This document shows, piece after piece, positions 7,745-64,000 of a stretch of DNA of 64,000 nucleotides. Location: contig CAYFJX010000004.1 in the NCBI GenBank assembly GCA_964343705.1, positions 69,583-133,582 of the forward strand, read 5' to 3'. The position numbers were made by a program, and so were the translations under genes. The notes below the pieces were generated by a model. That model did no database searches, was not told the origin of the DNA, and worked only from the letters and a program-made list of their open reading frames with translations. This DNA comes from an uncultured Methanosarcinales archaeon. GTDB taxonomy: Archaea; Nanobdellota; Nanobdellia; Woesearchaeales; UBA12501. The stretch's first letter is position 1, and each line of letters opens with the position of its first letter.

Positions 7745-7912
7745 GGGGTGTGTCCCGAATCTTGCTTTTTGTGCAGGAGGGATAGCACTGCGAAGGTTAA
7801 CGCTCGCATCCGCTCGCTGATTCTACGTCGGCACCCCTGCATAAATCGGGGTGCCTCCGAACAGACTTCAAGGCAGTGCTATCCCTCAGAAAGACTCTCG
7901 GGACATACCCTC
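7745..7912. repeat. GC-rich nested palindromic element (REP-B family, full copy) filling a divergent intergenic region
   Basis: Three nested inverted-repeat pairs: ggggtgtgtcccga(7745)/tcgggacatacccc(7898), gggatagcactgc(7779)/gcagtgctatccc(7873) and ggcacccc(7830)/ggggtgcc(7848). The right half recurs at 55503..55570. Confidence 0.7.
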
Positions 7913-7955
7913 TTTTTTGGCAAGGCTTAAATACATCCACCCTACACGCTCAATC

Positions 7956-16583: not shown

Positions 16584-16711
16584 CCCTCCATAGCTCAATT
16601 GGTAGAGCGCAGGGCTGTAGATAAACTCACCCACCGACTAGGCATATAGCCATGAATGAAAGTGGGACAGCCGATACCTTGAGGTTCCCGGTTCGAGTCC
16701 GGGTGGGGGGA
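16584..16711 (+). tRNA. tRNA-Tyr (anticodon GTA) with a 55-nt canonical intron (37/38) at 16621..16675
   Basis: Acceptor ccctcca/tgggggg (C1:G72). D arm gctc-aattggta-gagc. Anticodon stem caggg/ccttg with loop ctGTAg|intron|a. T arm cccgg-ttcgagt-ccggg. Discriminator A. Confidence 0.75.
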
Positions 16712-18177: not shown

Positions 18178-20484
18178 TTAACGTGCTTCAACCCAAGCTT
18201 GATATTGATCATGGCGTTCTTTTACATCAGCCATCAATGAGGCAACTGCATCTTGTTTATCACCAGGATGACCAGGAATAAAGTTTGCAGCATTGGTGTG
18301 GTTTACAACTATTAAATTATGTTTTCCTACTGGGAGAATTAAAGAAGGTGTTTCTTGGGCACGCTTCATGATTTCATCTGACCCCACATAGGTTTTCTCA
18401 TGGCTTGCTATGTTCCTAATAGAGTACACTGCAAAGGGTCCGTCTTCACCATTTATTACAGGTGTTGTTTGTAGCCATGCCTGAAGTTCAAGAGGATTTC
18501 CAACCTGCCCAAGATCAGGTGCAGTTACATAAAATATATGTCGTTTGCGTTGATTTCCAATTGTTTGCTTATACACTTCTCCTTTCTTAAGTATGTCATC
18601 TACTCTCCCTCTTGTTATACCTTTTGCTTCACGGAGCTCTTTTGCTGTTACAAGCACTAATCCTTGATGATAATGTATTGCTTGAACCCTTCCAGTAGAC
18701 AGTGGCTCCTCGAGAGTTGGCTCGTGTTGTATAAGAGTGCCATCTGGTTCCATCTTCTGCCTCCAGCGCTGAAATTGTTCATAGCGCTGTCCAACATCAG
18801 CTAAAAGATCCTCAACAAATCCTCCTCTTTTTGTGTTGGTTGATACAAAGTGGCGAGCATTGTCTTTGTTAACAATGAAATATTTGCTTGCTCTTTGTTC
18901 TGAGTGTGTACCAATCACTCTTATTAGGTCTTGTTCAAAAACTTTTTCTAATGCTTCTACAGTTTTCATTCCTGGGATAGTGCCAAGTCTCACTGTGTTA
19001 TATAATGCAAAGGGTGTGTCTATACCAACAAAACGATTTGCCTTAACTTCGGAGAGAAGCTCATTATAACTTGATCCATGGCGTTCGAAAACAGCAGGAA
19101 GTATTTCAGGAGTGAGAAAGTAAACACGTATTGGTCGTTTCTCACCAAACTCTTCAGCATACAATAATCCTCCTTCAATAAGCCTTTGTAATTCCTTGCG
19201 GTTTTTGGTGTCCTTAATTTTGTGGAATACAACGTGGGTTATAGGGAAAAATCCATCTTGGTAACATGCGTCAACCTCATTGTTAAGTGATAAGGTTATT
19301 GAGGGGTTAGTTTTAGGTGGTTCCGGTTCTGTATTTGTTTTTTCTTCAAGACTTGCTGCTTCAGTAGGGGTAGCTGGTATACGAACTGCTGACAAAGCAG
19401 ATATTTCATCTACCTCTCCTGCATCATTCTGTTCTAGTTCTTCATCATGTTGCTCTTCATCAAGTCCTGCTTCATATGCTTCTAATGCTTTTAATTTTTC
19501 CCACAAGTTTTTCCTACTGATTCCAAGGAGTTTGGCAGCTTCTGCTTTTCTTCCTCCTGTGTGGGCGAGTGCAATTTTGATATAGCTAAGCTCTGCCTCA
19601 CGCATAACTTCTACCAACGGTCGAAATCCTCGACGTCTTCTGTATGTTTGTCCACCTGTTAAATCAAGAGAGTTTTGGTCAAAAATAATATGTTGCGCTC
19701 TGAGGCTTTCTCCGTCACTCAAGAGCACTGCCCGTTCAATAATATTTTCTAACTCCCTAACATTCCCACCCCACTCATAATTTTGTAAAATCACAGCTGC
19801 GTTTCCATCAATGCTAGTGACTCTTGTGCCATATTTTTTATTATTCTTAGCAACAAGATATGCGGCAATATCCAAAAGGTCACTTCCCCTATCTCGTAAG
19901 GGAGGTACATGTAATGGGAATACATTCAGTCGGTGAAATAGGTCTTGCCGAAACGTCCCTTTTTCAATTTCCTGCACAAGATCCTTATTTGTTGCTGCAA
20001 GCACACGTACATCAATAGATGCTGTTTGAGTTGCACCAACGGGGACTACTTCTCGTTCTTGTAACACATTAAGCAGCTTTGCTTGCATGTCAGGACTCAT
20101 TTCTGAAACTTCATCAAGGAATATAGTGCCTCTATCAGCTTCTCGGAAATGTCCTTTTCTTGCTTGACTTGCACCAGTAAACGCACCTTTAACATGACCA
20201 AACAATTCTGATTCCATGATTCCCTCAGGAATTGCAGGGCAATTTACATGGACAAACGGATTTTTCTTAGTTTGATTAGCTCCACTAGCATGTAATGCTT
20301 TAGCAATCAGTGTCTTCCCAGTTCCTGTTTCACCTGTAAGCAAAACACTAGCAGGCTTGCCTGCAAGAATGTTAAGAAATTGGTATAACTGCAGCATTGC
20401 AGGGCTTTTTCCTACAATCTCAAGATCTCCATTAATTTTGTAGATTCCCTGCTCAGCGTCATAATTGGCAATATCTCCTGTCAT
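18178..20484 (-). CDS. Sigma-54-interaction-domain AAA+ ATPase (bEBP-like, GAFTGA motif) + Fis-type HTH + duplicated C-terminal domain
   Basis: Walker A is LLTGETGTGKTLIAKA. ESELFGHVKGAFTGAS is the GAFTGA signature. Also has RVLAATNKDL...FRQDLFHRLNVFPLHVPPLRDR and the HTH GGRKAEAAKLLGISRKNLWEKLK. The last ~300 aa form two repeats of about 130 aa (..ADVGQRYEQFQRW.. / ..ADVKERHDQYQAW..). Confidence 0.75.
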   Translation of the reverse strand: MTGDIANYDAEQGIYKINGDLEIVGKSPAMLQLYQFLNILAGKPASVLLTGETGTGKTLIAKALHASGANQTKKNPFVHVNCPAIPEGIMESELFGHVKGAFTGASQARKGHFREADRGTIFLDEVSEMSPDMQAKLLNVLQEREVVPVGATQTASIDVRVLAATNKDLVQEIEKGTFRQDLFHRLNVFPLHVPPLRDRGSDLLDIAAYLVAKNNKKYGTRVTSIDGNAAVILQNYEWGGNVRELENIIERAVLLSDGESLRAQHIIFDQNSLDLTGGQTYRRRRGFRPLVEVMREAELSYIKIALAHTGGRKAEAAKLLGISRKNLWEKLKALEAYEAGLDEEQHDEELEQNDAGEVDEISALSAVRIPATPTEAASLEEKTNTEPEPPKTNPSITLSLNNEVDACYQDGFFPITHVVFHKIKDTKNRKELQRLIEGGLLYAEEFGEKRPIRVYFLTPEILPAVFERHGSSYNELLSEVKANRFVGIDTPFALYNTVRLGTIPGMKTVEALEKVFEQDLIRVIGTHSEQRASKYFIVNKDNARHFVSTNTKRGGFVEDLLADVGQRYEQFQRWRQKMEPDGTLIQHEPTLEEPLSTGRVQAIHYHQGLVLVTAKELREAKGITRGRVDDILKKGEVYKQTIGNQRKRHIFYVTAPDLGQVGNPLELQAWLQTTPVINGEDGPFAVYSIRNIASHEKTYVGSDEIMKRAQETPSLILPVGKHNLIVVNHTNAANFIPGHPGDKQDAVASLMADVKERHDQYQAWVEAR

Positions 20485-24246: not shown

Positions 24247-25608
24247 TCACGCAACTCTTCGTTCAGCTTCTGAAACAGCACGTCTTAGTACTCGATGCGG
24301 TGCTGTTTCAGGGTTGGCAAATACGTGTTGGATATCTCCCCAGCGGTACACTTGTAGTATTGCTTTATACACCTTCAGTTCATCGATGGGGCTGGCATCA
24401 GGTGCTTTTTCCTTGATTAAAGTATTGATTCTGCTAGTGGATTTTGCATACATCAATGCTAGGTTTCTTTGTGTTACTGGTGTGTCTTCATTCCACAACT
24501 CAGGTGACCAGTATTCATCTTGTTCACCATTAAAATATTTGAAAATTCTTTCTTTCATCTGAGCTGCTGAGTAATTACTTTCTACTTTTTCCTCTAACTG
24601 TGCTGTTATTGCATCAACATGAGGTGCAAGGTCTCCAAATTGGTATACTTCCACACCACCTACCATTGTTCGTTCTGAGGTAATACCACGAACTGCAAGC
24701 TCAGGAGCAACGTGCTTTGTCATTGGAGGATGAAACCACTCCTCAATATTGAAGTACTTCTTTGCATTCTTAAATTCGCCACTTTTCATACTTTCTTGAG
24801 CAGCGTCATATGCTTTTCTTAAAAAGCTTTGAACAGGAGAATGTCGAGGGAAAACTACAAAACTAGCAGCAAGATAGTGTGGAGCTCGCATCTCATACAA
24901 TGCTACTGCTGCTTCCATTTCTTGGGCCAGCGCCACTTCTTGCTCCGGAGTTAGGAGAGGTGCTTTTCCTGCTTCTCGCAACCATAATTTCACCAGGTCT
25001 TTAGTTACTGCAGCTCCTTCTTCATCTTGTCTTTGCCGGCTTTCCTTAAGTATCTTACTTTCCGGGATATTAGTCTCTGCAGCATACATTGATTCTGGAA
25101 TTTCCCCTTCATACCCCAGTGACTTCATGACTTCTTTAAGTTCTTCTTTGCTTATATCAACAGCTTCATCTTTTTCAGCTTCGTGTTCTTCATAAAAACT
25201 TTCAAGTTCATCACGAGTAGTAAATACTTGCGAAGGAGTGAAACCTTCTGCAGTCTTTTTTTCTCGGAAGTCAACTATGCTTACTCCTTTTTTTTCATAT
25301 GCAACTGTTACATGGTAGCTGTTTGGCCCTTTTTTTTTCTTGACTGGTTTTGCATTGAACATGGCTCCAGCAACAAACATACTATCACCATCTTGCATGC
25401 TGACCACAAGTGTGTCTCTAGTAAGTTGGTCAACTTGCACTTCTAAAGTGGCATACACTAAGAAATTCTTTGCATTATCAGAAGGCAGAGGTAATGTGGC
25501 CACGTATTCCTCGCCACTTTTTTGAAGGGGGATAGTGAGGTCTCCAAGAATTTTCAAATAGTCGCTTCTGCTTTGTACTGGCTCCATTATCTCAGCAGGC
25601 ATTCCCAT
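24247..25608 (-). CDS. Hypothetical protein (453 aa)
   Basis: Long ORF. Contains a short stretch resembling sigma-70 region 1.2 (LWLREAGKAPLLTPEQEVALAQ), but no further sigma regions. Confidence 0.4.
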   Translation of the reverse strand: MGMPAEIMEPVQSRSDYLKILGDLTIPLQKSGEEYVATLPLPSDNAKNFLVYATLEVQVDQLTRDTLVVSMQDGDSMFVAGAMFNAKPVKKKKGPNSYHVTVAYEKKGVSIVDFREKKTAEGFTPSQVFTTRDELESFYEEHEAEKDEAVDISKEELKEVMKSLGYEGEIPESMYAAETNIPESKILKESRQRQDEEGAAVTKDLVKLWLREAGKAPLLTPEQEVALAQEMEAAVALYEMRAPHYLAASFVVFPRHSPVQSFLRKAYDAAQESMKSGEFKNAKKYFNIEEWFHPPMTKHVAPELAVRGITSERTMVGGVEVYQFGDLAPHVDAITAQLEEKVESNYSAAQMKERIFKYFNGEQDEYWSPELWNEDTPVTQRNLALMYAKSTSRINTLIKEKAPDASPIDELKVYKAILQVYRWGDIQHVFANPETAPHRVLRRAVSEAERRVA

Positions 25609-38748: not shown

Positions 38749-38806
38749 TCAAAATAATTAAAAATCTTATTTTTCTTTTTCTGACTTTTTGTAGGTGATC
38801 TGACTT

Positions 38807-38927
38807 CAGCAGATTCTACAAAATCAAAGAACATTTCAACTGCACAGATTAATTATTATTTAATCCGCCCTGAAGGGCGGTTAAAACTGTGCAATATAAG
38901 ATTTGATTAAGAAAAAGCTCAGGCTTT
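38807..38927 (-). repeat. REP-A intergenic element, copy 1 (reverse orientation; divergent inner hairpin ccgccc-tgaa-gggcgg)
   Basis: Aligns with the copies at 44728, 48681 and 52591. Shares the outer tgcacag...ctgtgca stem and the flanks ctttgattttgtagaat / cctgagc. Confidence 0.7.
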
Positions 38928-38957
38928 ACCTGATTTTACCTAATTCTCGTTATTTTC

Positions 38958-44665: not shown

Positions 44666-44727
44666 GGGTTGTTGGGGTTATTTGGGGTTTTTATAGTTTG
44701 TTATTGGGTGTGCTTTGGGTAAAATTA

Positions 44728-44862
44728 GTTTCAGCTGGGGCTGTTTCAAAACCATATCTGACATTGCACAGTTTTAACCGGGCCGTGTTCCGGCCCGGAT
44801 TTAACGGCAAAGCCGTTCTATCTGTGCGTTTGAAATACTCTTTGACTTTGAAGAACTTGCAG
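44728..44862 (+). repeat. REP-A intergenic element, copy 2
   Basis: gtttcagctggggctgtttcaaaa...tgcacagttttaaccgggccgtgttccggcccgg...ctgtgcg...ctttgactttgaagaacttgc. Confidence 0.7.
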
Positions 44863-44953
44863 ATGTCAGATCCCAACCGTATCCTGCCTTATTTTTGTTT
44901 CATGCCTTTAACTTGCCGAAATACTTATAAACTATTACAACCTTGCATCTTTC

Positions 44954-47826: not shown

Positions 47827-47954
47827 GGGCTGGTAGTTAAATCTGGTATAACGCTCGGCTGGCAGCCGAGACCGAGACAAACTCGGCGGTTAAGGCTCCG
47901 GGTTCAAATATCCATGGGGGGACTCCTCGGGAATTGAAAGTCCCGGCCAGTCCA
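47827..47954 (+). tRNA. tRNA-Ala (anticodon GGC) with two putative non-canonical introns (variable region and T-loop)
   Basis: Acceptor gggctgg/ccagtcc with G3:U70. Anticodon stem ctcgg/ccgag, loop ctGGCag. ~18-nt insert accgagacaaactcggcg in the variable region. T stem ccggg/cccgg is interrupted after ttcaaa(t) by about 31 nt. Discriminator A. Confidence 0.55.
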
Positions 47955-47978
47955 TATTTTTTTCTTTGATAATAAGGG

Positions 47979-48097
47979 CGCCCGCCCCGGGATTTTCATC
48001 CAAACACTTGTTGTTGCCTAGATTTTGAACCCGGATAGCTGGTAAACCAGCAGCTGGGATCTCAACCCAGTGCAATACCAAGTTATGCGAAGCGGGC
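47979..48097 (-). tRNA. tRNA-Leu (anticodon GAG), class II, with a putative ~31-nt intron in the T-loop
   Basis: Minus-strand acceptor gcccgct/ggcgggc. Anticodon stem ctggg/cccag, loop ttGAGat. Long variable hairpin gctgg-ttta-ccagc. T stem ccggg/cccgg separated by ttcaaa + insert + at. Confidence 0.55.
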
Positions 48098-48157
48098 ATT
48101 TTCATATGGTTCTTATTTAGTTTTACGAAAAATATTTATACTTCATTACATCTAAGT

Positions 48158-48199
48158 GCTTTGGATCTCAACTCAGTGCGTCCAAGTTATACGATGCGC
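48158..48199 (-). pseudogene. Partial tRNA-Leu-like fragment (5' two-thirds: acceptor/D/anticodon arm), degenerate
   Basis: Minus strand ..gcgcatcgtataacttggacgcactgagttgagatccaaag aligns with the tRNA-Leu 5' part (..cgcataacttggtattgcactgggttgagatcccag). Confidence 0.45.
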
Positions 48200-48233
48200 T
48201 TTTTTTCTTTTCATTTTTTCTTTAATTATAATG

Positions 48234-48355
48234 AGGCGAGGGCGGGATTTTCATCCGCGGTAGATACTTCCACTCACACTTTTGAACCCGCGTGATACGG
48301 ATGTATCATCCTGACCTTCAACCAGGTGCCTTAGACCTGACTCGGCCACCTCGCC
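48234..48355 (-). tRNA. Class II tRNA (Ser/Leu-type long variable arm) with a putative T-loop intron; anticodon assignment uncertain
   Basis: Acceptor ggcgagg/cctcgcc is a perfect stem. Anticodon arm cctgg-ttgaagg-tcagg reads GAA under standard framing, which is atypical for class II. Variable hairpin gatac-atcc-gtatc. T stem gcggg/cccgc is interrupted by about 31 nt. Confidence 0.45.
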
Positions 48356-48446: not shown

Positions 48447-48680
48447 TTTTTTTCTTTTTTTCTTTACTTTTCGTATAGTTTTCGAGCTATTTAAGTTCTG
48501 GGTCCACAGATGTCCAGTGTCCAGTGGGTGTTTCGGTTTCGTCGGAAAATTTTCAAAACAGTAGTAGAAGCTTTCTAAAAGATGTCTAGTAAAAGAAATC
48601 GAAGATGTTCTGTTAAAATTCGTAAAGTATCCGGAAAAAAGCCTGTCCAGTAGAAAAACAAAAATGAGTGTGCAAAGTTA

Positions 48681-48812
48681 GTTTCAGCCTGAGCTGTTTC
48701 AAAAACCTTGCCTAACATTGCACAGTTGTAACCGGGTCGGGTTCCGACCCGGATTTAAAATTATTAATCTGTGCATTTGAAAATATTCTTTGATTTTGAT
48801 GAATTTGCTGCC
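48681..48812 (+). repeat. REP-A intergenic element, copy 3
   Basis: gtttcagcctgagctgtttcaaaaa...tgcacagttgtaaccgggtcgggttccgacccgg...ctgtgca...ctttgattttgatgaatttgc. Confidence 0.7.
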
Positions 48813-48910
48813 CCTTATTCACCTACAAAACCCCAGATACCCAGTTTGACCTTACTCCCAAACCCTTACCATCACAAACTATAAAAAGGCTGTATCCTAA
48901 AACTAATTTC

Positions 48911-52556: not shown

Positions 52557-52590
52557 AGAGTATTCTAACTTTTTGTAAGTGAGCTAGGAG

Positions 52591-52722
52591 CGGCAAATTC
52601 TACAAAATCAAAGAGAATTTCAACTGCACAGATTGAATAAATTTAAATCCGGGTCGGAACCCGACCCGGTTAAAACTGTGCATGCTTGATATGATTATGA
52701 AACAGTCCAAGCTGAAACTAAC
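52591..52722 (-). repeat. REP-A intergenic element, copy 4 (reverse orientation)
   Basis: The reverse complement reads gtttcagcttggactgtttcataat...tgcacagttttaaccgggtcgggttccgacccgg...ctgtgcag...ctttgattttgtagaatttgc. Confidence 0.7.
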
Positions 52723-52862
52723 TTTGCTCATTGCTCAAAACAGATTTTTTATCCAGATCTTACCTCTTTCTTTGTCCAGGCTGAAACTGATTCTGCTTTA
52801 TTACTGTTGCTTAAGCACAAAATATATAAAACTAAGACACATTACTCATGTAAGGTGATAGC

Positions 52863-54994: not shown

Positions 54995-55502
54995 TTTTTT
55001 TTATTCTCTTTCCACTTCTTTTTTTTCTTAGTAGTAATCTTCAAAATCGTAGTATGTGTTGTCGTCTAATTCGTGTTCTGCAAGCTCTTCATCAAACTCG
55101 TAATCTATTAGCTTGTCAACACGTGGATGGGCAATCCATTGTTCCCACTCTTCACGTCGCATTGGCATAGTTTACACCCCCATGTAATGCCTTAATTAGG
55201 GTGAATAAAATATAATAAAGTGATGTATATATGGTATAACCAAGGTTTCCTAAACTTTAGGTGATGGTCCTTTTTACTTCCTCAATAAATATCAATCTTT
55301 CGGAACAGACACCGCTATGAAGTGATGGTTGACCTTACCTCGCAGAATTCTTGCTGTAGAACGCTTAATTCGCTTTTTGTTGTTTGAAATTTTTGCGAAC
55401 TTATCTTCAACTCTTTTGGCTCAATTTGGAGAGTGTTACACATTGCTTTTGTAATGAAGCAACATTTTGTTATATGGTCTGCATACCCTCAACATTTTGG
55501 GA

Positions 55503-55570
55503 ATCGGGGTGCCTCCGAACAGACTTCAAGGCAGTGCTACCCCTCAGAAAGACTCTTGGGACACACCCCT
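55503..55570. repeat. REP-B element, half copy (matches 7845..7912 with 3 mismatches in 68 nt)
   Basis: atcggggtgcctccgaacagacttcaaggcagtgctacccctcagaaagactcttgggacacacccct. Internal ggggtg/cacccc inverted repeat. Confidence 0.7.
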
Positions 55571-55695
55571 TTATTTTGTGAGAAATTGCGTCAACCAGAT
55601 CGCGAGAGTTGTTGTTATTCTTAAGTAATTAAAAAAGAAAAACTTATAAATAATCAGCACTTTTCAATACCAAAAAGTATGATTGAGGTATACTC

Positions 55696-55845
55696 ATGTC
55701 ACAAAAGCAATATATCATAACAAAAAAGATAGCCAAACAAGGCGATAAGGCAGTTATCTGTATTCCTGCTTTGCTTCAGGAAGAATTAAAACCTTCAACA
55801 GTTGTGAAAGTAACTATTGACGTAATTAAGGAGGCAGGGCAATGA
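55696..55845 (+). CDS. AbrB/SpoVT-like small DNA-binding protein (49 aa), first gene of a three-gene operon
   Basis: MSQKQYIITKKIAKQGDKAVICIPALLQEELKPSTVVKVTIDVIKEAGQ is a swapped-hairpin-like pattern. Its stop overlaps the next ATG (ATGA). It is too short for the ORF track. Confidence 0.45.
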   Translation: MSQKQYIITKKIAKQGDKAVICIPALLQEELKPSTVVKVTIDVIKEAGQ

Positions 55846-56897
55846 ACGATAATACAAACGACACTTCATTAGTTCCTGTTGATCCTTGGCAAGGAATTTT
55901 GGGACAAGCTTATGATGGTAGTATGGAAAAAGTTTTAAGTGCACATTTTCGCAATGGTTTAGAAGAACTTACTGTTGACGCAAGCACATTAGAGCGACAA
56001 AAATCAAAGCTGGAAGAGTCACGCAGAAAAGATGCTGAAATGCATAAAGTTGCTGTGCTAACTGAAAAAGCAGATTTCAAAGAAAAAAATAGATTGCTTG
56101 CACGATTAACTCGTAAAGTAGTTTTTATAGAACCTGATCATAAACCTTCACTTGAAACGTCTGTTTATGAAAAGGCAGTTGAAGTTGGGCAAACATTGAC
56201 AGAATATCTTGATAATCTTAGAAAGTTTGCTTCACAGTTTTCTGTGCTGGGAGAAAGATATCAAAAACTCTGTGAACAACAAACTGAATTGGAACTGAGA
56301 AGAGAACAGATAGAACGGCGTGCTTCAACATATGAGAATGAAGAAAGATTAACAGCCGATTTTATTGGCAAAGTAACAGGTTATTCTAGTTTAGCAGATG
56401 CTGATCAGGATGCTTTGGCTCAATCTGTCAGAGAAGCGACTAATGGTGTTGATATTAGTGACGAAAATGTAAGAGAAATTTTTGTTCAACAGTTGAAAAG
56501 AGGACAGTTTACTTTGCGTCAAACCCATATTACTGACCAAGCTGATCATGAAGAGATAAGTATACGGCTTGCTTCTGTTTCCAGACAGTTGGAGGGAGTA
56601 AATAAAGATGCTGGAAGGTTGTGGGATCTATATAATCCTGCAAGGACCGAAGCTGTTCATTTAAGTGTAACATATCAGGAATTAAGTTCTGCTGCGGAAA
56701 CAGGAACAGCAATTTATGGTGTTGCACAAATGCTTGGGTCAGCAAGAGAATTATGTGAATCTGCCAGAGAAATGCAAGATGCCTTAGAAGCTGCAGTAGA
56801 AGGGCAGTTGGAAGTATTAAGTGCGTTTAGGGGAGTAAATGATGGAAGAGGATCTTATCAATTATCAACTGGAGACACAAGGAGGGGTGAAGAGTAA
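55842..56897 (+). CDS. Coiled-coil hypothetical protein (351 aa)
   Basis: Long heptad-rich central region. No catalytic motifs. Confidence 0.45.
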   Translation: MNDNTNDTSLVPVDPWQGILGQAYDGSMEKVLSAHFRNGLEELTVDASTLERQKSKLEESRRKDAEMHKVAVLTEKADFKEKNRLLARLTRKVVFIEPDHKPSLETSVYEKAVEVGQTLTEYLDNLRKFASQFSVLGERYQKLCEQQTELELRREQIERRASTYENEERLTADFIGKVTGYSSLADADQDALAQSVREATNGVDISDENVREIFVQQLKRGQFTLRQTHITDQADHEEISIRLASVSRQLEGVNKDAGRLWDLYNPARTEAVHLSVTYQELSSAAETGTAIYGVAQMLGSARELCESAREMQDALEAAVEGQLEVLSAFRGVNDGRGSYQLSTGDTRRGEE

Positions 56898-56898
56898 A

Positions 56899-57912
56899 AT
56901 GGATGAAGTAAGATTTCCTACGATTGTTAGTGTGATTAGTGAAAAGTTTGGTGCTTATACCAAGGCTTTAACTGAAGCGCAGAACTTAGCTGGCAGAGAC
57001 GAGTTAGATGCTGATGAACGAAGAAGATTTGATGAGTTGATGCAACATTTAAGAAAAGATGAAGCGACTGCTGGTTTGCTTTCCTCTGAGCAGCGTGTTG
57101 GTCTTGATGCTGTTTTTGATGCTCATGTACAATTATCAAATGTTCCTTTTCCTGCTTGTATCAGTAAGATCACCCAAAACTATGTTGTTTTGAATAATAT
57201 TAGGCCTGTTGATGCTGATGATACTGTTCTTTGGAGTCATCCTAAGCTGTATATTCCTAAAAACATTATTAAGGATGCGAATGGCAATCACGTTAATAAA
57301 ACCCCTTATGAGTGGGCTGTTTTTTTTGAACAACAAGAGCAAAATGGCTGGTTTTTACCAAGTCCTGCAGACACTTGTAACATTCTGGCTGTTTTGTTTA
57401 AAAATAGGGAGGATAAGGAAGTAAGAAGAGTGTTTATGCAGTATAAAGACCAAGGCTATGGTTCTGGCCTGCACGCTCAGAATGGCCTTGTTGATTTTGG
57501 TGTAAGGCAATTTATTCATTACCCTAATGCTGCTGATTTTGGTAAGTCGGGAAGTGTTAATGCTGGCAGGAGAAGAACTGCTTTAAGTTTTGACAAGTTT
57601 GTTTTGCGAAGTGAGAGGTTAGAGGATGCCTTGCGTGTTCCTGAAAAAGCAAGGTATGTTCGGCAGTGGAGTTGTTTAAAAGATCCTTCTGTTTTGGTTG
57701 AGATTGGAGAGGAGTATGGCAATCCTGCTAGGTTGTGGTTTCCTTGGAACAGAAAGAATAGTACAGGATATAACAAGAAAATGCTGGCCTGGGTTGGTCA
57801 CATCGCCGATATCTTCACACTTTATGCCAGCGGCAATCTTTCCTTCTATTATGCTACTCGTGGGGTACTTCAGGCGCCGCAGGCGCGCAAACGAAAAAAT
57901 AGTTCCACCTGA
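56899..57912 (+). CDS. Hypothetical protein (338 aa) with Cys...His...Asp order suggestive of a papain/transglutaminase-like fold (speculative)
   Basis: PADTCNILAV ... WVGHIADIF ... D. The ATG is 2 nt after the stop of the previous gene. Confidence 0.4.
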   Translation: MDEVRFPTIVSVISEKFGAYTKALTEAQNLAGRDELDADERRRFDELMQHLRKDEATAGLLSSEQRVGLDAVFDAHVQLSNVPFPACISKITQNYVVLNNIRPVDADDTVLWSHPKLYIPKNIIKDANGNHVNKTPYEWAVFFEQQEQNGWFLPSPADTCNILAVLFKNREDKEVRRVFMQYKDQGYGSGLHAQNGLVDFGVRQFIHYPNAADFGKSGSVNAGRRRTALSFDKFVLRSERLEDALRVPEKARYVRQWSCLKDPSVLVEIGEEYGNPARLWFPWNRKNSTGYNKKMLAWVGHIADIFTLYASGNLSFYYATRGVLQAPQARKRKNSST

Positions 57913-58397
57913 AATAAAGGTTAGGTAAATCTTTATAAACACCAGCAACTTCTTTATTTTTGTCCTCATTGCTCTACTTCTTTGGTGGAACGGCATGGGC
58001 TCTACACGTCTCTTTGCTAGCGCCTCTTATTCAAGAGGACATAAAATTCAACCACAACAGCAAATGCCTGAAGTGGTGGTGCTAGAAACAGCAAGGAGGC
58101 TACTTAAGGGCGGCCTGGCTCGGTTGCAGCAACAATAACTTCAACCTTAATGCCAACAACAATCTTAACAGCAATAATACTGCTCGTGGAATAGCCCTAC
58201 CTCAGCGAGGACTTTTCTTTAAACTATTTAAGAGAGTTCTCTTCCCAATCACTAAAGCTAGTTTTCAGTTCAATAACATCATTTTCGAGATTTTTCAGTC
58301 CATCCAAAAGCTCTTTATAGTCCATACATGTCAGGTATAAATTAGAACTTTTAAAATTTTCTTCTATTTATGTTATCTAGGGTAGCTACCTGCTAGA

Positions 58398-58485
58398 ATC
58401 AGCTTGCCGCTCAAGCTCTAACTTCTTAGCGATTGCAGCAGAATTATTACTTAGGTTGAAAGCATGTGTGATCTCGTCAGCAAGG
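58398..58485. repeat. 88-bp exact direct repeat of the rps7 3'-terminal coding sequence (second copy at 59036..59123)
   Basis: Identical 88-mer atcagcttgccgctcaag...ctcgtcagcaagg. Flanking codons at both copies encode SSR-stop using different codons. Confidence 0.8.
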
Positions 58486-58492
58486 TACTTGA

Positions 58493-58615
58493 CTATAGCT
58501 TACCTATTGCTTCAAGAATCTTTTCATGTCCTTTGACTAAACTCATAAATCGATCTAGTTCATGTGATACAATTTTATATGCTTCTTTATCTTTTAAATT
58601 CTCTGATTTTGCCAT
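58493..58615 (-). CDS. Small ORF (40 aa), possible antitoxin partner of the Fic/Doc gene
   Basis: MAKSENLKDKEAYKIVSHELDRFMSLVKGHEKILEAIGKL. Overlaps the 3' end of the Doc gene by 29 nt. Confidence 0.3.
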   Translation of the reverse strand: MAKSENLKDKEAYKIVSHELDRFMSLVKGHEKILEAIGKL

Positions 58616-58979
58616 GTTTTAACCACTCTTTTATTTCACTATCCTGATAGTATCTTTCTCTGATGCCAAGCATAACGCGTGCCTGTTTTGGGTTGTTTTT
58701 TACTGCAAAACGCGCCTTGTTTTTACGTAAAAATTCTTTTGTTACAATAAATGCAGTTCTTCGATTTCCGCTAGCAAAAGGGTGTTCTCTGATGAGACCC
58801 TTGCAAAGCACTACTGCTTTATCATACATGTCTCCTCTTTCTTGTTTGCACAAATTAATTACTTTGTTTAATTTTGATTTATTTAAAACTTTAGGGGAAT
58901 CTGCTTTTTTAGTTTTCAAAAAAGCGATTGCAAGTAGATTATATTCAATAATTCGTTCTGGTGTTGGGTAATAAAGCAT
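58587..58979 (-). CDS. doc: Fic/Doc-family toxin (death-on-curing)
   Basis: The Fic motif HPFxxGNKRTA is present as HPFASGNRRTAF. 130 aa. Its own TATA (tttataaa) lies about 27 nt upstream. Confidence 0.7.
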   Translation of the reverse strand: MLYYPTPERIIEYNLLAIAFLKTKKADSPKVLNKSKLNKVINLCKQERGDMYDKAVVLCKGLIREHPFASGNRRTAFIVTKEFLRKNKARFAVKNNPKQARVMLGIRERYYQDSEIKEWLKHGKIREFKR

Positions 58980-59023: not shown

Positions 59024-59623
59024 TTATCGACTACTATCAGCTTGCCGCTCAAGCTCTAACTTCTTAGCGATTGCAGCAGAATTATTACTTAGGTTGAAAG
59101 CATGTGTGATCTCGTCAGCAAGGCAGTCAACCATTGACTTTTTTCCATTGAAACTTTTGTGGAATGAACCTTGTGCCATAACACGTAGTGCAAAATCAAT
59201 GCGTCGTTGTGGTGAGCACTCAACTGCCTTTGGGTATCGAGCTCCACCATATTCAATGGTGATGATCTCTTCTCGTGGTGCAGCGTTTTCAATTGCTTTT
59301 ACCAGTGCTTCAACAGGGTTCTTGCCTGTTTTTTGCTCAACTTTGATAAGTGCTTTTTTGAGAATGTCTGCAGCAGTAGCATACTTGCCGGTGATACGGC
59401 CAGAGCTTTTGAAGTGTTTTTTGCTCTTGTGACCAGGTACCATTAGTTTGTTGATAAGTCGTTCAACAATAAATGACTTTGATTTGTGGAATCTGCTTCC
59501 TGCGTATTTTCCAGAACTCTTTGGTACAATACGTGGTTCTAAACAGATGTAATCTTTAAGCCCAAGGTCTTCTACTACGATATCTGTGGTAGGCCACTTG
59601 TTGAATGCTAATACTTCAGTCAT
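59024..59623 (-). CDS. rps7: 30S ribosomal protein S7 (uS7)
   Basis: 199 aa ending KAVECSPQRRIDFALRVMAQG. Typical archaeal uS7. Confidence 0.85.
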   Translation of the reverse strand: MTEVLAFNKWPTTDIVVEDLGLKDYICLEPRIVPKSSGKYAGSRFHKSKSFIVERLINKLMVPGHKSKKHFKSSGRITGKYATAADILKKALIKVEQKTGKNPVEALVKAIENAAPREEIITIEYGGARYPKAVECSPQRRIDFALRVMAQGSFHKSFNGKKSMVDCLADEITHAFNLSNNSAAIAKKLELERQADSSR

Positions 59624-61488: not shown

Positions 61489-61565
61489 GTGTACTCTTTA
61501 ATGTTTGCTCTTAATAAATATTTCCTGCCGCAACCTTTTTAAATCATCTCCCTCAACTCTAGCTC

Positions 61566-64000
61566 ATGAAATCAACACCTAATGAAGGCACTAGTGATCG
61601 AGGACCCTTCTTTAGTCCGCGCTATAATGCACCAGAACTTGAACCACAAATAATGACATTCTGGGAAAAACAAGACACCTACGCAGCACTACAAAAAATG
61701 CGAAGCAAAGGAAAAGAGTTCTACTTTCTTGACGGACCCCCCTACACTAGTGGTCGTGTCCACATTGGAACAGCATGGAATAAATCACTCAAAGACATGG
61801 TGCTACGGTACAAACGAATGCAGGGCTTTAATGTGTGGGATCGAGCAGGCTATGACATGCATGGTCTTCCCACAGAGCACGCAACAGAAAAAAAACTAGG
61901 CATCAAAGGAAAAAAAGGCATACAACACATAGGTGTAAAAAAATTCATTGACGAATGTAAAACCCTATGCGTAGAAAACATGAAAGTAATGAACAAAGAT
62001 TTCCAACGCCTTGGAGCTTGGATGGACTTTGACAACGCCTATCAAACAATTAGCAAAGAATACATGGAAGGTGTTTGGTGGCTGGTAAAAAAAGCACATG
62101 ACAAAAAACGCTTGTATGAAGGAAAGCGAGCAATGACTTGGTGCGGGCATTGTGCAACAGCAATAGCTAAACACGAACTAGAATACAAAAACATAACAGA
62201 TACATCACTCTTTGTAAAATTTCCAGTTAAAGGGAAAGAAAACACATTTCTTCTTATCTGGACAACAACACCTTGGACAATACCATTCAACCTTGCAGTC
62301 ATGGTTAATCCAGAACTTGACTACTTAACTGTTGAAGTGCAAGACGGTGAAGAAAAAGGGCAGCATTGGATACTTGCCAAAGCACTTGCAGGGCCAGTCA
62401 TGAACATGATTGCAGAACGAAAGTATAAAGTTGTTGAGGAATACAAGGGAGAAAAACTTGAAGGAATACAATACACTCACCCACTTGAAAAAGATATACC
62501 TTACCTCAAAGAAATTGCAAAAGACAAAACTGCCGCAAAAAAATTACATACTGTTCTCATGAGTAATGAGTATGTAACAACAACTGCAGGAACAGGACTA
62601 GTGCACTGCGCACCGGGGTGCGGAGCTGAAGACTATGAAGTAGGTCACCGCAATGGTCTTCCAGCGTTTAACAACATTAATGACCATGCTGTTTTCGAAA
62701 ACATGGGTAAGTTTGACAAGCTTGTTGCTAAAAAAGATGACTTACAATTTGTAGAACATATTGAAGAATCAGGTTTTCTCCTTGGAAAAACAAAAATAGA
62801 TCACGATTACCCACACTGTGACCGGTGTCACAAGCCAGTTGTCTTCAAAGCAACAAAGCAATGGTTCTTCAAAGTTGAAGACCTAAAAAAACAAATGATT
62901 GCAGAAAATAAGAAAATAGGTTGGGTACCTGAAGCAGCATTCAACGCGTTCAATTCATGGCTAGAAAACCTACGTGATAATTCTATAACAAAACAACGAT
63001 ACTGGGGAACAGCAATTCCAGTATGGCGATGTGAAAAAGAAGATTGTGAAAAATACGACGTGTTTGGATCTGTTGCAGAACTTGAAAAAGCAGCAAAAAC
63101 AACAGTCAAAGACATGCATAAGCCTGCAATTGATGAGGTAACAGTACCTTGTGAGTGTGGCGGTACAAAAAAACGACTTCCTGACATTCTTGACGTTTGG
63201 GTAGATGCGGGTTCAGCATCATGGAACTGCCTTGACTATCCAGCAAGTGATAAGAATTTCAAACTCTGGCCTGCTGAATTCATTATGGAGGGTAAGGATC
63301 AAATACGTGGTTGGTTTAACTTGCTTATGGTTGGCTCAATCATAGCACTTGATAAGCCTTCATTCAAGAACTGTTACATGCATGGCTTTGTGCAAGATGC
63401 TCTCGGCAGAAAAATGTCAAAAAGCTTGGGCAATGTTATAAGTCCTTACGAAGTTATTGATGAGTATGGTGCAGACACATTCCGTTATTATAGTATAGGC
63501 GGGTGTCCCCCAGCAACAGACCTCAAATACAACTTTGAGGATATGAAACTAAAACACAAGAACCTCATGGTATTGTGGAACTTACACAAGTATGTGTTAG
63601 ACATAAGTAGAACAATGGGTGTTTTGCCTTCTGACATTGACGAAAAGACAATGGCAAAAAGTGTTGAAGAGAAATACATGCTTTCCTATCTTAACAACAC
63701 TTTAAAGAAATTAACACAAGCTCATGACACTTATGCACTCAATGAAATCCCTTGGCTTGTTGAAGGGCTCTTCCTAGAACTTTCACGAACATACATTCAA
63801 CTTATCAGAGAAAAAACAGTGCTTGGTACTAATGAAGAAAAACAAGCAGTACTCTTTGTTTTATCAAAGACAATGCTTGAAACACTTAAACTATTTGCAC
63901 CTGTTGCTCCCTTTATCAGTGAAGCAATGTATCAGAACATGCGACACGAATTCGGTGAAAAATGGTCACAACCTGACAGTATACATCATTGTGACTGGCC
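61566..64000 (+). CDS. ileS: Isoleucyl-tRNA synthetase (class Ia), 3'-truncated by the window end
   Basis: HIGH region PPYTSGRVHIGTAWN, WDRAGYDMHGLPTE, Zn-knuckle CDRCHKPVVFKATKQWF and KMSKSLGN. No stop before the window end. ValRS cannot be fully excluded. Confidence 0.65.
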   Translation, partial: MKSTPNEGTSDRGPFFSPRYNAPELEPQIMTFWEKQDTYAALQKMRSKGKEFYFLDGPPYTSGRVHIGTAWNKSLKDMVLRYKRMQGFNVWDRAGYDMHGLPTEHATEKKLGIKGKKGIQHIGVKKFIDECKTLCVENMKVMNKDFQRLGAWMDFDNAYQTISKEYMEGVWWLVKKAHDKKRLYEGKRAMTWCGHCATAIAKHELEYKNITDTSLFVKFPVKGKENTFLLIWTTTPWTIPFNLAVMVNPELDYLTVEVQDGEEKGQHWILAKALAGPVMNMIAERKYKVVEEYKGEKLEGIQYTHPLEKDIPYLKEIAKDKTAAKKLHTVLMSNEYVTTTAGTGLVHCAPGCGAEDYEVGHRNGLPAFNNINDHAVFENMGKFDKLVAKKDDLQFVEHIEESGFLLGKTKIDHDYPHCDRCHKPVVFKATKQWFFKVEDLKKQMIAENKKIGWVPEAAFNAFNSWLENLRDNSITKQRYWGTAIPVWRCEKEDCEKYDVFGSVAELEKAAKTTVKDMHKPAIDEVTVPCECGGTKKRLPDILDVWVDAGSASWNCLDYPASDKNFKLWPAEFIMEGKDQIRGWFNLLMVGSIIALDKPSFKNCYMHGFVQDALGRKMSKSLGNVISPYEVIDEYGADTFRYYSIGGCPPATDLKYNFEDMKLKHKNLMVLWNLHKYVLDISRTMGVLPSDIDEKTMAKSVEEKYMLSYLNNTLKKLTQAHDTYALNEIPWLVEGLFLELSRTYIQLIREKTVLGTNEEKQAVLFVLSKTMLETLKLFAPVAPFISEAMYQNMRHEFGEKWSQPDSIHHCDW

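Follow-up and report, generated by a model that had tools for sequence, protein, structure and literature searches.

We found a non-coding intergenic repeat of ~170 nt, here called REP-A, with four full copies inside 14 kb of the window, by which we mean the whole 64,000 nt stretch of DNA analysed. The copies were identified by repeat finding, alignment and a covariance model, and the repeat is much longer than the 36 nt feature (38855-38890) of the original prediction. The preservation of structure across the copies is sound. We tentatively suggest that REP-A is a REP/PATE-like, non-autonomous and lineage-restricted interspersed DNA repeat, whose hairpin would be kept by structure-dependent propagation along with palindrome-templated mutation; this is our best reading, and we place it a little short of probable. 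As it stands, REP-A is a small species-restricted repeat family of an ordinary kind in an unusual host, and not a demonstrated new RNA.

The covariance model (R1) was built from the REP-A alignment and used together with repeat finding and alignment to delimit the copies. It gives the four copies 170-197 bits, and the rest of the window at most 18 bits with filters off (Table 1). The 5' end of copy 2 is truncated or divergent, and the decayed 3' fragment begins 71 nt downstream of the corresponding segment of copy 4. Pairwise identity between the copies is 70-81%, that is a divergence of 19-30%, hence the copies are old, and the original prediction was right in holding that they represent more than recent duplication. 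They occupy unrelated intergenic sites, in both orientations.

Table 1. Positions in the window of the REP-A copies, their hairpins and the locus adjoining copy 3.
Feature	Positions	Strand	Remarks
REP-A copy 1	38785-38950	+	R1 180 bits; alignments
Nested hairpin, copy 1	38841-38893	+	7-bp outer stem, AT-rich 5' loop, inner hairpin, 3' loop TTAAAA
Inner hairpin, copy 1	38865-38880	+	CCGCCC-TGAA-GGGCGG (6 bp); variant flagged in the original prediction
Small third helix, copy 1	38915-38926	+	AAGC-tcag-GCTT; one pair changed on both sides relative to CAGC..GCTG
REP-A copy 2	44708-44884	-	R1 170 bits
Inner hairpin, copy 2	44778-44798	-	CCGGGCCG-GAACA-CGGCCCGG (8 bp)
Extra perfect hairpin, copy 2 only	44803-44817	-	AACGGC-TTT-GCCGTT; inserted in the AT-rich loop
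REP-A copy 3	48661-48832	-	R1 188 bits
Inner hairpin, copy 3	48732-48752	-	CCGGGTCGG-AAC-CCGACCCGG (9 bp)
REP-A copy 4	52569-52738	+	R1 197 bits
Inner hairpin, copy 4	52649-52669	+	CCGGGTCGG-AAC-CCGACCCGG, same as copy 3
Decayed partial copy of REP-A 3' end	52773-52805	+	GTCCAGGCTGAAACTGATTCTGCT...; direct sequence reading
Small-RNA-like conserved locus	48510-48655	+	tail to tail with copy 3; TATA-like box ~20 nt upstream

REP-A consists of a 5' module that holds the conserved block ATTCTACAAAATCAAAGA..TTTCAA, a nested hairpin in the middle, and a 3' module in which the small helix CAGC-nnnn-GCTG (helix 3) is followed by AAACTAA. The central hairpin is flanked by a conserved ~55 nt on each side, and its foot is bordered by TTTCAAN and AAT. 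The nested hairpin is 53-64 nt long, with a pocket of 17-23 nt against 6 nt, and in copy 1 it reads TGCACAG-ATTAATTATTATTTAAT-CCGCCC-TGAA-GGGCGG-TTAAAA-CTGTGCA (53 nt). The pattern TGCACAG..CTGTGCA gave one match where 0.05 are expected by chance. The conserved outer tgcacag/ctgtgca stem described originally holds in all four copies as six base pairs, GCACAG/CTGTGC; the seventh pair is lost in copy 2, whose outer stem starts with C and not T. The inner stems are perfectly paired in all copies though they are 50-86% identical, and come in three variants. Copy 2 has a C-G in place of one U-A pair of copies 3 and 4, while in copy 1 the inner hairpin is block-replaced relative to the other copies and its length goes from 21 to 16 nt.

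We confirmed from the sequence that these differing inner hairpins, as claimed, are all perfect GC hairpins at the same position inside the outer stem: with 18 consensus pairs in the four-copy alignment, 70 of 70 cells are paired. Double-sided changes occur at four pairs among the four sequences, the inner stem holding three of them and helix 3 the fourth. None of 500 shuffles matched the observed pairing or covariation score, and when the partner columns were slid out of register pairing was only 15-34%. Perfect hairpins whose stem is 6 bp or longer and 80% GC or richer number five in the 64 kb against 0.9 expected from shuffles, and four of the five are REP-A inner hairpins. All 12 outer-stem bases are invariant, as compared with ~55% of the other columns (p ~0.001).

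The further claim, that the hairpin structure itself is under selection, stands in part. The pairing is kept non-randomly and the outer stem is invariant, but palindrome-templated mutation and the REP habit of forming sub-families can give such a pattern as well. Template-switch mutation during replication creates and maintains perfect hairpins and produces 'compensatory' changes in one event (PMC8794818, PMC5453318). The new perfect palindrome in copy 2 and the block replacement in copy 1 are as expected from template switching (PMC8794818), and the copy 1 stem, being a block replacement with a change in length, could be a single event. This documented mechanism (PMC8794818, PMC5453318) could also act alone, in which case the REP-A copies would be inert relics of old local duplications and their hairpins the product of palindrome mutational bias, without selection or mobility. 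The confinement of the copies to 14 kb, the tandem partial duplicate after copy 4, the novelties in copies 1 and 2 and the wholly Watson-Crick pairing agree with such relics. Mutational bias, however, does not account for the fixed sequence of the 12 outer-stem bases and of the 3' loop beside drifting flanks, nor for the arrival at four unrelated sites in both orientations without the flanking genes. We find this explanation unlikely.

The ~65 pairs in the outer, inner and copy 2-specific hairpins are all Watson-Crick with no G-U among them; in helix 3 a single G-U pair occurs, in copy 4 and on the sense strand. Folding of each copy gave RNA z-scores for the hairpin of -4.5 to -5.7 on either strand, far more stable than shuffles. 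With DNA parameters the z-scores were -5.9 to -6.7 for the nested hairpins of copies 1, 3 and 4, and -5.1 for the inner and extra hairpins of copy 2 without the outer stem. Several of these observations would suit a structured RNA, either a paralogous sRNA family or a UTR stabiliser or processing module, where selection on RNA folding keeps the hairpin and helix 3. The complete pairing and the four double-sided changes, one of them in the independent helix 3, the sense-strand G-U of copy 4, the stable RNA fold and the presence of a GC-rich hairpin in an AT-rich genome (39% GC) all point in this direction. Nevertheless, the large stems are without G-U and the antisense strand folds equally well, and beyond the hairpin there is no fold consistent across the copies. 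Rfam 15 gave no REP-A match at gathering thresholds (best 15-20 bits against thresholds of 39-115 bits), and no homologue was seen in any relative searched, which is unusual for a functional RNA.

The genomic neighbourhood bears on the same alternative. Copy 1 begins 37 nt past the thermosome stop codon, ends 64 nt ahead of the next gene and is co-oriented with the thermosome gene; copy 4 begins 13 nt past the stop codon of a HIT-family gene, likewise co-oriented. Lying directly after co-oriented genes, these two copies would be co-transcribed as 3' UTRs, and the next downstream gene is co-oriented with REP-A in all four cases (p ~0.06). Copy 2 lies in the spacer from which the GluRS and histone promoters diverge, and copy 3 sits between an alpha/beta-hydrolase promoter and the 3' end of the convergent small-RNA-like locus. 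The promoters of this genome are regular, with a BRE/TATA motif (AAAnTTTATAAAcc) ~34 nt ahead of start codons, and most mRNAs of the host appear to be leaderless. We scanned for promoters with a position weight matrix derived from this genome's own BRE/TATA sites, and found no conserved promoter within or ahead of REP-A in any copy; the strong promoter sites near the copies all belong to neighbouring genes. In the same scan no canonical BRE/TATA was found to read into copy 2 or copy 3, both lying between divergent promoters, and the one transcript likely to run into copy 3 would read it in antisense. These promoter findings go against a structured RNA, which we hold to be possible yet rather unlikely. 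The original prediction left it between RNA and cruciform DNA where the hairpin acts, and here the evidence leans towards DNA: the Watson-Crick-only stems, the equal folding of both strands, the lack of canonical promoters reading into copies 2 and 3, a fold limited to the hairpin and the lack of homologues in relatives with the surrounding genes all favour it.

Known kinds of RNA and other expressed elements were compared with REP-A and rejected. As an independent archaeal transcription unit it is without BRE/TATA 25-35 nt before its conserved 5' end. H/ACA RNAs are marked by a symmetric pocket, by a K-turn or K-loop within the upper stem and by an ACA box that follows the lower one, and C/D RNAs by RUGAUGA and CUGA boxes. 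By sequence reading these H/ACA, C/D and K-turn features are absent from REP-A, a further point against a structured RNA: REP-A ends in AAU/AUG and has no GA-AG motif, its pocket has the unequal lengths given above, and no C box is conserved. An intrinsic terminator does not fit either, as no T-run follows the hairpin and copy 2 has nothing to terminate. We found no conserved reading frame in REP-A and, by a count of differences, no third-position bias in the best antisense frame; a coding peptide was dismissed on these grounds, with one copy frameshifted and no consistent start. The segment GTTTTGAAAC..GCTGAAAC resembles a solo CRISPR-like repeat, but the similarity between the 3' end of copy 4 and the neighbouring fragment continues beyond GAAAC, which indicates duplication and not an array. 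A long-range pairing of the 5' and 3' ends, ATCTGACAT/ATGTCAGAT, is possible in copy 2 only and is not kept elsewhere.

REP-A might also be a host element acting at the DNA level, such as a protein-binding site, a promoter insulator or something linked to a replication origin. The sequence block CGGTTAMAACTGTGCA is invariant across the copies, the AT-rich loop is TATA-like in copies 3 and 4, copy 3 adjoins a conserved locus with an ORB-like core (TCCAGTGG), and the minimum of the cumulative GC skew lies at ~48-54 kb. Against this, the TATA-like loop is destroyed in copy 2 and scores poorly in copies 1 and 3, and as it is not conserved we discarded a promoter cassette. A palindromic operator would keep its sequence and not the pairing alone. 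For an ORB or origin element we found no Orc1/Cdc6 gene, relatives with these genes and the same TCCAGTG locus lack the repeat, and the copy orientations (+, -, -, +) are without symmetry about any point. We consider a host element of this kind very improbable.

The small-RNA-like locus next to copy 3 has the 5' end GTCCAGTGTCCAGTG and the 3' end TGTCCAGT(A/G)G, and it is the one that holds the ORB-like core. It has counterparts at L014 15446-15575, L021 2634-2770 and L056 1069-1150, and in L021 and L056 the 3' end is followed by a T-run. Three other Woesearchaeota lineages have the locus close to the thermosome gene, and Rfam gave no match to it. An intron-bearing tRNA gene (48234-48355, -; 40.8 bits in a local scan) lies ~300 nt further on from copy 3, and there is more tRNA-like sequence at ~47827-48100 (-), where a 71-aa ORF (47890-48105) is probably spurious. 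The tRNA sequences in 47827-48355 were missed by both ARAGORN and the whole-window Rfam scan. Another tRNA of 128 nt, at 16584-16711 (+; Rfam 51.6 bits), must contain an intron and was likewise not called by ARAGORN.

Among known repeats, the closest likeness is to REP and REPIN elements, which are mobilised by RAYT/TnpA_REP; the cognate RAYT/Y1 gene often has REPs on its flanks. REP sequences are 20-40 bp long and usually present in tens to thousands of copies, and to our knowledge they have so far been found in bacteria. Like them, REP-A is an intergenic GC-rich stem-loop, multicopy, in both orientations and often just downstream of genes, with the hairpin as the conserved unit. Sub-families with alternative complementary stem residues are routine in REP families (PMC3733652), and the three inner stem variants of REP-A follow this habit. 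REP palindromes carry an unpaired GTAG or CGTC tetranucleotide at one end (PMC3733652); REP-A has no such tag at the hairpin foot, and its sole GTAG (TTTTGTAGGTGA) is ~45 nt upstream of the hairpin and lacking in copy 2. REP-A further differs from REP by its ~170 nt length, nested hairpin and conserved ~55-nt flanks in place of a single stem-loop, and from REP/REPIN by the four copies seen, the archaeal host and the lack of a visible RAYT gene in the sequence read, which spans 64 kb plus 9 kb of the genome.

The haloarchaeal PATEs, derived from IS200/IS605, are alike REP-A in being archaeal, non-coding, palindrome-bearing and too short for a transposase. PATEs are transposase-free palindrome-bearing elements without inverted terminal repeats or target duplications, and their families are heterogeneous, with core-deleted versions that keep a single fused palindrome (PMC3119063). 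REP-A too is without these terminal features. No terminal inverted or direct repeats are common to the copies, those of copies 1, 3 and 4 being no better than shuffles, and a 9-nt terminal inverted match in copy 2 (ATCTGACAT/ATGTCAGAT; 3 of 200 shuffles) is unshared; from reading the flanks, no target-site duplications are present at any copy. PATE palindromes, however, lie near both termini and are alike, whereas REP-A has one central nested hairpin and a 4-bp helix. PATE ends also match resident IS605-type transposons, with a 4-6-nt target sequence beside the left end; in the available sequence we found neither an IS605 partner nor a conserved flanking tetranucleotide for REP-A, and its left boundaries are ragged. 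No transposase was found in the 36 Pfam-scanned ORFs of the window, which include all larger ORFs of 37-61 kb, or in the precomputed Pfam families of called genes at 27-49 kb, and Y1_Tnp had no match in either set.

MITEs resemble REP-A in being 100-200 bp long, intergenic, non-coding, lineage-specific and absent from orthologous sites in relatives, but they are defined by terminal inverted repeats, and usually target-site duplications, both of which REP-A lacks. The attC sites of integrons, which are recognised as a folded single strand, share with REP-A the nested outer and inner stems and a structure more conserved than the sequence. As an attC site REP-A was rejected, having no R''/R' (RYYYAAC/GTTRRRY) core, no IntI, and core syntenic genes (thermosome, GluRS) instead of cassettes as neighbours.

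Under the reading of REP-A as a REP/PATE-like repeat, the nested stem-loop would be the functional core. The outer stem and the 3' loop (CGGTTAMAACTGTGC), conserved as sequence, may be the part that is specifically recognised, while the inner GC hairpin is conserved as structure only; such a combination is the pattern expected of a protein that recognises a folded single strand. We speculate that the hairpin, formed on single-stranded DNA, could serve as the handle for a trans-acting enzyme encoded elsewhere when copies are made. The perfect pairing might then be kept in two ways: only hairpin-competent masters would propagate, and intra-strand template switching would correct or create palindromes, giving 'compensatory' changes at a single stroke. 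That REP-A is mobile, acts as DNA and depends on a trans-acting enzyme is what we infer, and as the copies are 19-30% diverged any spread is old. Some observations run counter to a REP/PATE-like repeat. It gives no account of why all copies cluster within 14 kb, a single nested hairpin in the centre with ~55-nt flanks fits neither REP nor PATE, and in a genome of 39% GC such a GC-rich hairpin is what one would also expect of a structured RNA. The absence of transposases from the sets scanned and of presence/absence polymorphism among samples likewise counts against it.

Contigs of ENA project PRJEB17505 match the flanking thermosome gene at 100%, and the nearest named relatives are Woesearchaeota/Nanoarchaeota (DPANN). 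Contigs of the same population from other samples hold identical REP-A copies; among five such samples there was no presence/absence polymorphism, and no precise empty site could be aligned. The closest long relative, the syntenic GCA_030651375.1 (thermosome 77% identical), is without REP-A: only 72 nt separate GluRS from the histone gene there, where the window has 289 nt, and there is nothing after the thermosome gene. REP-A is also absent from a relative of 80% identity. Searches with R1 gave no copy in 80 metagenomic Woesearchaeota loci (780 kb) or in the 9 kb past the left window edge. Exact-pattern scans gave nine chance matches in GTDB representative genomes, none of them confirmed by R1, and no copy in JGI metagenomes or, with three patterns, in IMG/VR; nor did blastn find one in phage and plasmid collections. 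We also searched with REP-A pseudo-peptides, aiming at ORFs miscalled by gene callers across other copies. There was no match in a word index of 5.8 billion proteins, and in a representative set of 1.84 billion only three unrelated large repeat proteins were hit. As far as can be seen, the family is species-specific with four members.

In one of the same-population samples (L019 1993-2199) an extra 68-aa gene stands between a 347-aa gene and the Spt5-NGN gene, corresponding to window ~630-900; it is a strain-level insertion or deletion in which no REP-A copy is involved.

DPANN archaea have very small genomes, which are generally regarded as repeat-poor. If REP-A is a hairpin-dependent mobile or domesticated repeat, it would extend REP/PATE-type biology to DPANN archaea and would point to a single-strand DNA enzyme of this genome that has so far gone unrecognised. 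A still stronger interpretation would make it either the first archaeal (DPANN) REP-like system, with a single-stranded DNA hairpin and a dedicated, possibly domesticated HUH/Y1-type enzyme, or a Woesearchaeota-specific structured RNA under purifying selection; we judge this distinctly unlikely. The family also gives a caution for RNA discovery based on covariation, as palindromes in DNA repeats mimic 'compensatory' patterns without selection at the RNA level.

The window holds other repeated and structured sequences. An 89-nt perfect direct repeat (58397-58485 and 59035-59123) is a second copy of the last part of the ribosomal protein S7 gene, with a Fic/DOC-family gene (58587-58979, -; Pfam E-value 6e-7) between the two units; the arrangement resembles the insertion of a toxin cassette at the 3' end of S7 with a target duplication. 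An RT-16 RNA match (57965-58108, +) scores 71.7 bits in Rfam, where the gathering score is 50. The RT-16 motif is normally linked to reverse transcriptases, and no RT domain was detected in the adjoining ORFs (55842-57912). We looked at whether REP-A could be linked to this RNA or to the Fic/DOC cassette, and there is no sequence relation to either. A 75-nt repeat of 92% identity occurs at 7844-7918 and 55502-55576; the former copy is within a GC-rich self-complementary stretch (~7775-7915) that ends in a T-run and may be a structured RNA. At the right end, neither strand of the ~2.5 kb of 61500-64000 shows a convincing ORF, and Rfam gave no match there; this may be non-coding DNA or a gene that continues past the window edge. 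Finally, a bacterial-type sigma-54 activator (18178-20484, -; Sigma54_activat and HTH_8, E-value 3e-65) and a protein that matches Sigma70 region 1.2 (24247-25608, -) probably reflect horizontal transfer into an otherwise archaeal genome.
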